Source: Candidatus Latescibacterota bacterium (GTDB taxonomy: Bacteria; Latescibacterota; UBA2968; UBA8231). From it: a DNA stretch of 13,950 nucleotides. The notes below the pieces were generated by a model, which worked only from the letters and a program-made list of their open reading frames with translations, was not told the origin of the DNA and did no database searches. The stretch is taken from the NCBI GenBank assembly GCA_965205655.1, contig CBDBIJ010000011.1, forward strand, positions 1-13,950, given 5' to 3'. The translations under genes and the position numbers were made by a program. Positions 8,242-13,883 of the stretch are shown piece by piece; position 1 is the stretch's first letter; every line of letters starts with the position of its first letter.

Positions 8242-9306
8242 TTAGTTCAGGGCACCGCCGCAGGAGCTGCCGGCGCCGGCAGTACAGCCGAAGCAATGGT
8301 CAGCGACGGCGATTGAGCCTTCGCCAAATTCCTCCAGTGTATCGATGTCCCAGACGGTTCGGTGAGGTCGTGGGACCGGGATTTCGAGCATCTGGTTGAA
8401 GTCGCAGTCGTAGATGGTGCCCTCCCAGCCCAGGGAGATGAGATCGCGACACATGACGCCGTCGACAGTCTCGACGTTGAAGCTGTTGACGAGCAGCGTC
8501 ATGTACTCCTCGAGCTCACCGGAGTGCTTGAGGTCGTAGAGGAATCGCTTGATCGGCATGTTGGTGATGGTGAACAGGCCGTTGAAGACGATGCCGAAGT
8601 CCTCCTCTAGCCGCTCCTTGTAGTCTCCTTCCAGCTCGATCTGATCCGGCGGCAGGAAAGGCCCCACCGGGTTGTACACGAGGTCGAGCGTGAGACCGGA
8701 GCCGTCCTTTCCATAGCCGAGACCGTTGAGCAGCTGCAGTGCCTCGATGCTCTGCGCAAAAACCCCGTCACCTCTCTGTTTGTCCACGTTCTCCTGCGAG
8801 TAGCACGGCATGGAGGCCACGATGTCGACATTGTTGTCGCAAAGAAACTCGGCGGTGTCTTCCTGTCCCGGCTGGAACAGCACGGTGAGGTTGCAGCGGT
8901 CGATGACGCGGCAGTCGCGCGCGCGCGCTTCGATGACGAGGTAGCGAAAACAGGGGTTGAGCTCTGGCGCGCCACCGGTGATGTCGACGAGGTCGAGATG
9001 CTCGGCGCCTGGCCGGTCTAAGAGCTCGACGACGCGCTCAGCCGTCTCCCGCGTCATCTGCTCCTTGCGGCGAGGGCTGGCATCGACGTGGCAATGCCGG
9101 CAGGTCTGGTTGCAGAGCTTGCCGACGTTCACCTGAAGAGTGGTGAGCCGGCGGCGGGTGACACTCAGCTCGTGCCGTCGGAGAACGCTGCTGAAATGCG
9201 GCCAGTCACCCTCGAGCCGGTCACGATTAGCAGGCGTGACCTTGGCGCGAACAGATGTGGCGTCGGTGGCGTGCGCTCCATCGATGTTGAGCAGCGTATC
9301 GGTCAT
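8242..9306 (-). CDS. arsS: ArsS-type radical SAM protein (arsenosugar biosynthesis family, C-terminal DUF3641-like domain), Cys form
   Basis: TLQVNVGKLCNQTCRHCHVDASP (CxxxCxxC), DITGGAPELNP, IDRCNLTVL, ASMPCY, VDKQRG, LVYNPVG, ITNMPIKRF, VMCR, YDCDFNQML, terminal HCFGCTAGAGSSCGGAL. Probable true start is the ATG at 9306 (354 aa). The extra N-terminal 118 aa of the supplied 472-aa ORF come from the upstream gene and spacer. Confidence 0.88.
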   Translation of the reverse strand: MTDTLLNIDGAHATDATSVRAKVTPANRDRLEGDWPHFSSVLRRHELSVTRRRLTTLQVNVGKLCNQTCRHCHVDASPRRKEQMTRETAERVVELLDRPGAEHLDLVDITGGAPELNPCFRYLVIEARARDCRVIDRCNLTVLFQPGQEDTAEFLCDNNVDIVASMPCYSQENVDKQRGDGVFAQSIEALQLLNGLGYGKDGSGLTLDLVYNPVGPFLPPDQIELEGDYKERLEEDFGIVFNGLFTITNMPIKRFLYDLKHSGELEEYMTLLVNSFNVETVDGVMCRDLISLGWEGTIYDCDFNQMLEIPVPRPHRTVWDIDTLEEFGEGSIAVADHCFGCTAGAGSSCGGALN

Positions 9307-9328
9307 CGCGCTATCTGAAGAATACGAG

Positions 9329-10107
9329 TCAAAACCGCTGGCGGAGTCGCAAAAGGCGGTCGGGATACTCCATGAATTTAGTCTCCGGATGCTGCTCGTG
9401 CCATTCGCGCCAGCGCGCCAGGTCGTGCCATTCGCGCCAGCGCGCCAGGATGTATGCGTCGACTCGAGCTCGGGGAGAACGCGATCCTGCAGCGGGCCGG
9501 CGATGCCGGTGAGCCCCCCTTCCGGCCTCGAAACCGGATACCAGAGGGTCTCCGTTTCCAGGTCGTAGAGAACGAATGTGTTTGCGTAGGTCCAGCCGCT
9601 GGCAGCCAGGGTCAGCGGCTGACCGTCAAGCTCGCGACTGTACACGGCAGTCAATCCCACGAGCGGTCAGTAGGCGACCGCCGCCTGGGTGTGGCCGATG
9701 GTTTCGTTGACGATTTCATGCCGCGTGAGTTCCCGAACGGCATAGCTGCGGATGTCGCCGTCGACGGAAATGCCGATGACAGCCGGGCCTTCGCTCCACC
9801 ACGATCCCTCGGAGGGGTAACCGGGCTCGCCTGGAGATAGCATGTCCGGGTGATCGATCGGTCGAATCGTGTTCTTGCCGATGCCAAACTGAAACCCGGC
9901 GACCCGCATACCGTAGCGATGCACAGCGTGGGTGATGTCGAACCGCACGCCTTCGCGGTCGGTGATGTAAATGGGCTTACGACGGGAGTGGCCGCCTGCG
10001 GGAGTCTCGAAACCGGCGCCGGCCGATGGGGGAGGAGGCGCACAGGAGCTGACGGCCAGACAAGCGGCTCCGACGACCGCGGCGCAGGTCGTCGTCGGAG
10101 AGGCCGC
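9329..10107 (-). CDS. DUF3179-like probable selenoprotein, predicted lipoprotein, single-repeat form; frameshifted near the 3' end and with an unresolved start
   Basis: Track ORFs 9667..9948 and 8242..9660 share a frame, separated only by TGA-CCG-CTC. Reading through gives HEIVNETIGHTQAAVAY-U-PLVGLTAVYSRELDG...ASGWTYANTFVLYDLETETLW, matching the paralog's HEIVHHVVGGLDVVTTY-C-PLTNSAVLF...NTGALYNNNVVMYDRETRSVW. The true C-terminus WREWHEQHPETKFM...QRF* (stop 9331-9329) is in another frame. Lipobox-like AVVGAACLAVSS-C has its Cys at 10044-10042. Confidence 0.82.
9396..9449. repeat. perfect 27-bp tandem duplication, each copy containing an internal 8-bp tandem duplication
   Basis: TCGTGCCATTCGCGCCAGCGCGCCAGG at 9396-9422 and 9423-9449; each unit contains CGCGCCAG twice. 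Confidence 0.95.
9619..9670 (-). promoter_or_regulatory. candidate bacterial SECIS stem-loop at and directly downstream of the in-frame UGA
   Basis: The mRNA reads C-UGA-CCGCUCGUGGGAUU-GACUG-CCGUGUA-CAGUC-GCGAGC-UUGA-CGGUCAG. Upper stem GACUG/CAGUC closes a 7-nt loop beginning 19 nt after UGA; the middle stem is GCUCGU/GCGAGC and the outer stem CUGACC/GGUCAG. Pairing was read by eye; no energy was computed. Confidence 0.6.
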
Positions 10108-12790: not shown

Positions 12791-12809
12791 AACGGGGAGG
12801 CAGAGCATA

Positions 12810-13883
12810 ATGTATCAGCACGGACTGTTGAGCACCTACCGGCGGTCGCTGCGCAGTCGAGGTTTGAGCGCGTGGCTTCTCGGGGGCGTGATTCTCACCT
12901 TCTACATCCTCACCTACTTCTCCGAGGTCTTCACACCGACTGCCATCGCCCTGGGCCTGAAAAACAAGTGGTGGCTCTACGGGGCGATCTACTGTATCGC
13001 CATGGTGGGCGGCGGCATCTACTTCCTCAAGCACCACGGCAACAACCGCTACCACCGCATCCGCACCACCGTTCTCATCGCCGTGCAGATTCTGCTCGCG
13101 TTCTGTCTGCCCTTCGCCATGGCCTTGTTCGGTAAGAGGGAGTTCTATTTTTCGTACCTGTGGCCCCTGAAGATCGACTACTTCTATCCGGGTACGATCT
13201 TCGAGTATCCGGTACTCATCGCCCTCTACAGTTTTCTGGGATCGCTCATCCTCTTTCCACTGCTTGCCGTGACGGTGGGCAAGCGGTTCTACTGCTCGTG
13301 GATCTGCGGCTGCGGCGGCCTGGCCGAGACGCTGGGAGATCCGTGGCGTCACCTGTCCGACAAGTCGACGAAGGCGTGGAAGTTCGAGCAGGTCTCCATT
13401 CACACGGTACTGCTGCTGGCGCTGGGCACGACGGCCCTTGTGCTCATCAACTGGGCGATCGGTCAGCAGCATCCCACCTTCAGCAACATCGCTTTCAAGG
13501 TGCAGGAGTACTACGGTTTGGTGGTGGGGGCACTGCTGTCGGGCGTGTTCGCCGTGGCGCTCTATCCGCTCCTGGGATCGCGGGTGTGGTGCCGCTTCTT
13601 CTGTCCGATGGCGGCCATGCTGGGCCTGATCCAGAAATTCGGGCGCTTCCGGATCACCGTGAAGGACAACATGTGCATCTCGTGCGGCAACTGCAGCACG
13701 TACTGCGAAATGGGTATCGACGTGCGCGCCTATGCCCAGAACAACGAGAGCTTCAAGCGGGCCTCCTGCGTGGGATGCGGCATGTGCGCCCACGTCTGCC
13801 CGCGGGGCGTGCTCAAGCTGGAGAACAAGTGGGACCTGCTCGGAGACAAGGCGAAGCAACGCTTGCGGGTCCTGGATCTGTGA
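12810..13883 (+). CDS. polytopic membrane 4Fe-4S binding protein (NapH/MauN/YccM-like polyferredoxin)
   Basis: Several hydrophobic segments, GKRFYCSWICGCGG and RVWCRFFCP motifs, and two ferredoxin motifs, CISCGNCSTYCE and CVGCGMCAHVCP. The ATG at 12810 behind GGGGAGG (12794-12800) is preferred over the track start at 12777. Confidence 0.9.
   Translation: MYQHGLLSTYRRSLRSRGLSAWLLGGVILTFYILTYFSEVFTPTAIALGLKNKWWLYGAIYCIAMVGGGIYFLKHHGNNRYHRIRTTVLIAVQILLAFCLPFAMALFGKREFYFSYLWPLKIDYFYPGTIFEYPVLIALYSFLGSLILFPLLAVTVGKRFYCSWICGCGGLAETLGDPWRHLSDKSTKAWKFEQVSIHTVLLLALGTTALVLINWAIGQQHPTFSNIAFKVQEYYGLVVGALLSGVFAVALYPLLGSRVWCRFFCPMAAMLGLIQKFGRFRITVKDNMCISCGNCSTYCEMGIDVRAYAQNNESFKRASCVGCGMCAHVCPRGVLKLENKWDLLGDKAKQRLRVLDL

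Follow-up and report, generated by a model that had tools for sequence, protein, structure and literature searches.

Bacterial arsenosugar synthesis has so far been characterised only in its first steps. The radical SAM enzyme ArsS is described as adenosylating trivalent dimethylarsenic (DMAs(III)) in a redox-neutral cycle (PMC13598754; on ArsS chemistry see also PMC12159101 and bioRxiv 2024.02.01.577332), and a review notes that for many radical SAM enzymes the partner in the cell is not known. The described systems closest to the one treated here are the ArsM-ArsS cassette (TIGR04167, NF038099, TIGR04282, TIGR04283, TIGR04169), the polyferredoxins of the CcoG/FixG and NapH/MauN/NosR type, among which CcoG is reported to be a cytoplasm-facing cupric reductase (PMC8267372), the CcdA/DsbD thiol relays, and the DUF3179 proteins (PF11376), already tabulated among predicted selenoprotein families, with the motif UxxC/T (PMC9312934, PMC13188914) in tables that give neither a function nor a gene context. 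Here we describe a locus on contig CBDBIJ010000011.1 of a Candidatus Latescibacterota genome (GCA_965205655.1, 84% complete); the window analysed is the whole contig of 13,950 nt. Its minus strand carries, in this order, a long DUF3179 gene, a short DUF3179 gene with an in-frame TGA, and arsS, and the plus strand carries, divergent from these, a Pyr_redox_2 flavoprotein gene followed by the gene of a Fer4_5 membrane polyferredoxin (together, the pair).

The five genes are genuine, and their identities as given in the original prediction were borne out: PF11376 is matched twice, the arsS product scores 440 bits with TIGR04167 against a curated cut-off of 300 and has Radical_SAM and DUF3641 domains, and Pyr_redox_2 and Fer4_5 are recovered on the other strand. 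From its sequence, this ArsS is predicted to adenosylate DMAs(III) to 5'-deoxy-5'-dimethylarsinoyl-adenosine (DDMAA). The locus is a variant of the known ArsS cassette, made from catalogued but uncharacterised families. It shares with that cassette a full-scoring ArsS, and in other phyla the cassette holds the pair and a short DUF3179 gene; it differs in its two DUF3179 genes and divergent reductase pair, and in that arsM, TIGR04282 and TIGR04169-like genes were not found, and TIGR04283 gave nothing above cut-off, in the 84%-complete genome. The polyferredoxin resembles CcoG/FixG and NapH/MauN/NosR-type proteins in its Fer4_5 cysteine pairs and two 4Fe-4S motifs, predicted to face the cytoplasm, but it has a flavoprotein partner of its own, no oxidase or nitrate reductase genes lie nearby, and its 70.7 bits with TIGR02163 against a cut-off of 213 led us to reject it as NapH/MauN; the CcoG model was not among the best 25 of 47 NCBIfam rows. 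As in CcdA/DsbD relays, a membrane protein gene adjoins exported thiol protein genes, whereas here there is no conserved intramembrane cysteine pair, and Fe-S clusters and a flavoprotein are found rather than thioredoxin. The short DUF3179 gene agrees with the tabulated selenoproteins in a TGA at the family cysteine, a SECIS (selenocysteine insertion sequence)-like hairpin and selenocysteine (Sec) machinery in the genome; compared with what the tables state, it is half-length (~Pfam positions 6-150), has UPLV in place of UxxC/T, and is broken in the window strain. The module is not described in the literature searched, which left aside subscription papers and supplements that may describe it, and no paper there matched methylarsenate reductase or dimethylarsinate reductase as an enzyme name. 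The two proteins of the pair, whose interface is predicted with confidence, make up a candidate reductase that would supply ArsS with reduced substrate or electrons.

Linkage and predicted complex of the reductase pair

The pair is linked to arsS across phyla. The polyferredoxin subfamily has at least 570 loci in GTDB. Among the 80 best of these, the FAD (flavin adenine dinucleotide) protein gene lies directly upstream of the polyferredoxin gene in 74; of the other six, five offer no sequence on that side and L114 alone truly lacks the gene there. In many relatives a fused flavoprotein-polyferredoxin of ~790 aa takes the same place. The original prediction had proposed that recurrence of these families in other neighbourhoods would separate a module from chance adjacency, and they do recur across phyla: arsS stands within 10 kb of the pair at 8 of the 80 loci against 0.21 expected, a ~40-fold excess, and anywhere in the genome in 54 of the 80 (50 above cut-off) as compared with 36/121 in a Bacteroidota sample. 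One genome among the 80 (G133) is flagged unpublished, and without it the counts become 73/79 for the upstream FAD gene and 53/79 for arsS anywhere. A test on 120 Bacteroidota genomes, with the centre G117 dropped, gave a pair/arsS table of 15/5/20/80, an odds ratio of 12 and a p of 4e-6 that is overstated, since kin are not independent; without three distant matches the table is 12/5/23/80 and the odds ratio 8.3. In 6 of those 15 genomes arsS is within 10 kb of the pair. DUF547, TIGR04282 and TIGR04283-like genes, which belong to the arsS cassette, also recur beside the pair.

Structure modelling predicts that the flavoprotein binds the polyferredoxin and that the two form one cytoplasm-facing reductase. 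The predicted complex scores 0.85 versus 0.00 for the best control, a mark that 116 of 157 solved pairs and 2 of 215 mismatched ones reach, counts that are only roughly valid with custom alignments; contact agreement between runs is at least 88% and the pLDDT (predicted local distance difference test) of the partners at least 83. At the predicted interface invariant flavoprotein residues meet the cluster loop 285-297 of the polyferredoxin, and a sequence search among solved structures returned no similar pair. Modelled alone, the polyferredoxin is poor (pLDDT 56.7) and unfit for structure search. The FAD-to-Fe-S electron step of the original prediction has thus gained a conserved gene pair and a predicted complex. 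The flavoprotein itself falls under every NCBIfam cut-off shown; its reading as CoA-disulfide reductase or NirB was rejected (96 vs 579 and 135 vs 578 bits), the redox cysteine not being conserved, with C49 present in 7 of 68 sequences only.

The topology is less kind to the second half of that proposal, in which electrons would continue to the exported thiol and selenol proteins. The polyferredoxin has two cysteine-pair motifs and two 4Fe-4S motifs, and C162, C166, C168, C261 and C265 together with the cluster cysteines are conserved in 75-76 of 76 sequences. All of these invariant cysteines lie in the loop 154-194 or in the tail after residue 255, which are predicted to be cytoplasmic by the positive-inside rule, and the complex model places the N-terminus, the loop 78-84 and the Fe-S domain against the soluble flavoprotein. 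In the predicted topology the membrane helices and outer loops hold no conserved cysteine among the 76 sequences (C62 is conserved in 4 and C99 in 1). Nothing here therefore points to a thiol relay that reaches exported proteins, and DUF3179 is found in only 15 of the 50 pair genomes that were checked among the 80.

The DUF3179 genes: selenocysteine, damage and context

The Sec reading of the short DUF3179 gene, part of the original prediction, is supported. Its TGA (9669-9667) aligns with the single conserved cysteine of the family, and the equivalent codon in 80 related metagenome loci is TGA in 77 and Cys in one, with two ambiguous. The SECIS-like element has strong family-level conservation and covariation in the aligned sequences: all five stem pairs show compensatory changes (18 sequences, few independent lineages), pairing averages 4.55 of 5 versus 0.8-2.8 when the stem is slid, and the Val codon in the hairpin loop is GTG in 74 of 74 distinct segments (68 loci) versus 160 of 515 other Val codons of the same genes. 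By itself the window hairpin is not unusually stable (z -0.56), and a genome-wide scan for SECIS loops was unspecific. The motif at Sec is UPLV, UPIV or UPLA in 14 aligned short Sec forms and does not match the published UxxC/T. Gene callers split this widespread subfamily in two. The genome has tRNA-Sec, selA and selB, and also selD (G000:C45:11500-12422), which has an in-frame TGA of its own and is split over three frames. These breaks are probably assembly indels; if they were real, selenoprotein synthesis would be lost, and this would explain the decay of the Sec-DUF3179 gene.

As assembled, both DUF3179 genes are interrupted, and contigs from six of eleven public runs were compared with the window (X4 and X8-X11 were not included, and X6 does not span the lesions). 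In the long gene, which gives PF11376 2.9e-64 and 2.3e-8 for its two assembled frames, the extra base at 10322 is missing from all five covering runs (X1, X2, X3, X5, X7) and is therefore an error of the assembly; other likely indel errors, selD for example, are found in the same assembly. In the short gene, the stretch 9396-9449 holds a 27-nt tandem duplication with a further one of 8 nt nested in it. X2 and X5, which come from two other studies, are 35 nt shorter here and have the gene intact, and X1 is shorter by 27 nt only and keeps the 8-nt duplication. The added 35 nt put the 3' part of the gene in frame with arsS, and the resulting 472-aa open reading frame (9660-8242) was rejected as a natural DUF3179-ArsS fusion: it is a product of the duplication, and in X2, X5 and relatives there are two distinct genes. 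At position 10094, in X2 and X5, the stop of the Cys gene overlaps the start of the Sec gene, an overlap in which a single point change can damage two genes; in the window strain, with ACGA as in X1, the long gene would read through 147 extra codons, to 535 aa. With ACG for ATG and the 8-nt duplication, the short gene is a probable pseudogene, so that Sec-DUF3179 is probably dead in the window strain, lesions that come from one low-depth data set and the assembly, as X1 (contig depth 3.6) is possibly the window's own source. The original prediction had presented the Sec gene without this damage.

The structure of the long DUF3179 protein was modelled from a relative (G013) with a pLDDT of 95.5. 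Its best structural matches are the Rieske-type 8hn2 (Z 8.6, root-mean-square deviation 3.7, 96 aligned) and the cluster-less NirD-like 3c0d (Z 8.2, deviation 3.8, 96 aligned), a resemblance of 12-14% identity and middling Z that lies mainly in the C-terminal half. Foldseek gave no match at E below 0.001, searches of PDB sequences no match for DUF3179 or ArsS, and the ESM Atlas no usable match outside PF11376. Across 100 DUF3179 sequences there is one conserved Cys and one invariant His. With only one conserved cysteine the protein would be without a Rieske cluster, and DUF3179 as a Rieske 2Fe-2S protein was rejected, the two Cys/His cluster-binding boxes not being present and the likeness being one of fold only. 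The C-terminal TAV...WGxIK motif of the long protein is one that we take to be reminiscent of Latescibacterota proteins.

The short Sec-DUF3179 recurs beside arsS, arsM or an ars operon, and the whole DUF3179 family is not tied to arsS. This settles in part the expected enrichment of DUF3179 near arsS: the short Sec form is found in arsenic contexts, but for the family as a whole there is no association in Bacteroidota (odds ratio 1.26, p 0.78), and the odds ratio with the pair is 0.26. In 80 metagenome loci of the short Sec form, 42 of them under 5 kb, a barrel gene is near in 15, arsS in 5, an ArsM-like gene in 7, DUF547 in 6, the pair in 1 and the fusion in 4; four of the five arsS cases resemble the family of our locus. 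One locus of 39% GC (L214) brings together FAD, Fer4, two family 2 glycosyltransferase (GT2) genes, DUF3179(Sec), a barrel gene, a TIGR04282-like gene (below cut-off), TIGR04169 and arsS. At L231 the short form is directly upstream of arsR-arsM-acr3, with look-alikes that are probably one event, and in two genomes (G038, G042) an arsenosugar arsM stands between DUF3179 genes. DUF3179(Sec)-FAD-Fer4 operons occur in two Zixibacteria and one Ignavibacteriales genome, and DUF3179 adjoins the pair or the fusion in most of the locus's own family. DUF3179 with FAD/Fer4 as a core module was nevertheless dropped, given one ancestral locus and no Bacteroidota association. Matches to TIGR04282 beside DUF3179 in G045 came from the barrel half of a fused query reading frame and were discarded.

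Possible roles of the pair

We tentatively favour a cytoplasm-facing flavoprotein-polyferredoxin reductase that serves ArsS, with the DUF3179 proteins acting separately outside the membrane, although we hold this to be a little short of an even chance. The flavoprotein would dock on the ferredoxin domain, and electrons would pass from NAD(P)H to FAD, to the two 4Fe-4S clusters and to the cytoplasmic cysteine motifs. Since the ArsS cycle is redox-neutral, the standing need of ArsS is its reduced substrate, and by analogy to CcoG such a chain suits methylarsenic reduction; its end point may be the conversion of imported pentavalent methylarsenic to the trivalent ArsS substrate, the priming of the ArsS cluster, or both. 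A cell with arsS and without arsM would then have to take up methylated arsenic and hold it in the trivalent state. Among genomes with arsS, many seem to be of this kind: at 1e-20, a threshold that canonical ArsM passes, no ArsM came up in 27 of 34 relatives with arsS, several of them near complete. The exported DUF3179 proteins may, with less assurance, bind trivalent arsenicals or thiols in the envelope through the one Cys or Sec that each has, and an outer-membrane barrel is often found next to them. A sharper version, in which the pair is a dedicated pentavalent-methylarsenical reductase and Sec-DUF3179 with the barrel a selenol-based device for organoarsenical capture, we consider unlikely; if it were true, bacteria without arsM would scavenge environmental dimethylarsenic and feed it to ArsS.

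Several observations weigh against a role of the pair in ArsS function. No arsS lies in the retrieved flanks of 72 of the 80 pair loci, and 26 of the 80 genomes have no arsS match. In a related genus, no close ortholog of the pair was found in 15 genomes with arsS, which have only a distant type of fusion that is unlinked in those checked; ArsS can thus do without the pair. In eight relatives DUF3179 is retained next to the pair or a fused analogue with no arsS match in the genome, and the same holds for the three genomes outside the family that have DUF3179(Sec)-FAD-Fer4 operons. Within the family of the locus, all cases go back to a single inherited position, bordered by genes for GGT, threonine aldolase and DUF255, and so are not independent. 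The original prediction was right that the window has no arsM or glycosyltransferase; it had also proposed looking for arsM, TIGR04282 and TIGR04283 past position 13950 and genome-wide, but the contig ends there with no further sequence, and the search of the incomplete genome gave no match to ArsM, nor to acr3, besides the cassette genes named at the outset. With those cassette genes unmatched, the arsenosugar route of the genome looks incomplete. A TVP38-like gene had no match in the genome either.

The genomes that have the pair without arsS, and the eight relatives that keep DUF3179 and the reductase without it, would suit a general redox module with no role for arsenic: the pair would reduce quinones or metals with NAD(P)H in the manner of NapH or CcoG, arsS would be a passenger in a redox island, and DUF3179 would be a thiol protein of the envelope that is supplied by DsbD/CcdA and thioredoxins. 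The pair is unlinked to arsS in most of the genomes that have both, invariant aromatics on an outer polyferredoxin loop could form a quinone site, a DsbD-type gene lies elsewhere in the genome, and an exported thioredoxin/DsbD-N protein of DUF255 is encoded at the locus itself. Yet the excess of arsS beside the pair, the odds ratio of 8-12 in Bacteroidota and the cassette genes that recur there speak for more than a passenger, and we regard this explanation as somewhat unlikely. A route across the membrane, with the polyferredoxin passing electrons to the exported Cys or Sec of DUF3179 in place of CcdA-TlpA, would fit the Zixibacteria and Ignavibacteriales operons and the adjacency in the own family; the cytoplasmic placement of the motif loops, the helices and outer loops free of conserved cysteines, the small share of pair genomes with DUF3179 and the near absence of the pair at short-form loci make it rather improbable. 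We are equally doubtful of a late step, in which the pair would work with GT2 glycosyltransferases and reduce a sugar or arsenoriboside intermediate at the membrane: two kinds of GT2 genes are each present in 8 of the 80 pair loci, often directly downstream, and again at L214, but neither the window nor the own-family loci examined hold a glycosyltransferase, and the closest GT2 homologues of the genome are on other contigs. Finally, the genes may adjoin by inheritance only, with no functional link, as the single inherited locus of variable content, the lack of association between DUF3179 and arsS, and the decaying Sec gene might suggest. The same families have been independently re-assembled in other phyla, and for arsS and the pair incidental adjacency is largely refuted; overall we judge it very improbable. 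Among these explanations, the reductase serving ArsS is the one retained here.

Features and neighbours of the locus

Positions of the features are collected below. The 22-nt gap reported between the restored stop of the short DUF3179 gene (9331-9329) and the arsS ATG (9306) was confirmed. Of the shared 91-bp control region, the spacing between the ATGs at 11259 and 11351 stands, but as geometry only: a scan of the spacer found no sigma-70-like site, and comparison with the arsS/FAD spacers of three relatives found no common motif.

Table 1. Coordinates of genes and elements in the window.
Feature	Position	Strand	Description
arsS	8242..9306	-	intact; 354-aa radical SAM enzyme of the arsenosugar type, with Cys rather than Sec
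Short DUF3179 selenoprotein gene	9329..10095	-	PF11376 1.7e-25; lipoprotein-like N-terminus (read by eye); in sister populations 243 aa, with Sec143; in window strain no start codon and frame disrupted
Nested 8-nt and 27-nt tandem duplications	9396..9449	.	net +35 nt
SECIS-like hairpin	9636..9652	-	5-bp stem, 7-nt loop; begins 17 nt after T of TGA
In-frame TGA (predicted selenocysteine)	9667..9669	-	at family cysteine position
Overlapping stop/start of the two DUF3179 genes	10092..10095	-	ATGA in X2, X5 and relative G013; ACGA in window and X1
Long DUF3179 gene	10092..11259	-	Cys form with YCPLT; N-terminus like a signal peptide; 388 aa in sister populations
Spacer	11260..11350	.	91 nt between divergent start codons
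FAD/NAD(P)H oxidoreductase gene	11351..12790	+	soluble, 479 aa, Pyr_redox_2 2.2e-44, without conserved CxxC
Membrane polyferredoxin gene	12810..13883	+	357 aa, ~six membrane helices, Fer4_5

The DUF255 protein (window 3909-6314) is exported-looking, with thioredoxin, six-hairpin and DsbD-N domains. Its gene is near arsS in 16 of 20 relatives' loci examined, and in three relatives without arsS it is co-directional with and upstream of DUF3179; the protein is a candidate outer thiol partner for DUF3179. Between DUF255 and arsS lie genes of a short-chain dehydrogenase/reductase and of the mandelate-racemase family (window 6318-8235), which are not at the relatives' loci, and by this comparison the segment looks like a lineage-specific insertion. 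A 15-nt tandem repeat (window 3864-3898) stands at the 3' end of the threonine-aldolase-like gene.

Elsewhere, two loci (L043 and L045, of G021 and G008) have three tandem short Sec-DUF3179 genes and a barrel gene directly upstream of arsS. A barrel-like family of ~300 aa (L042:9953-10867; L116:7958-8719; L214:8591-9622) lies beside short DUF3179 and also inside TIGR04169-arsS-TIGR04282-FAD-Fer4 operons, with a weak Phenol_MetA_deg match in one member. In a segment of 70% GC (L258:2740-9316) a short Sec-DUF3179 gene occurs with MerA-like genes and a TrsS-like radical SAM gene. A repeated element with an internal exact 17-nt tandem duplication occurs on many contigs of G000 (e.g. C2:995, C7:20843, C15:87215) and accounts for 21 of the 25 such sites examined.

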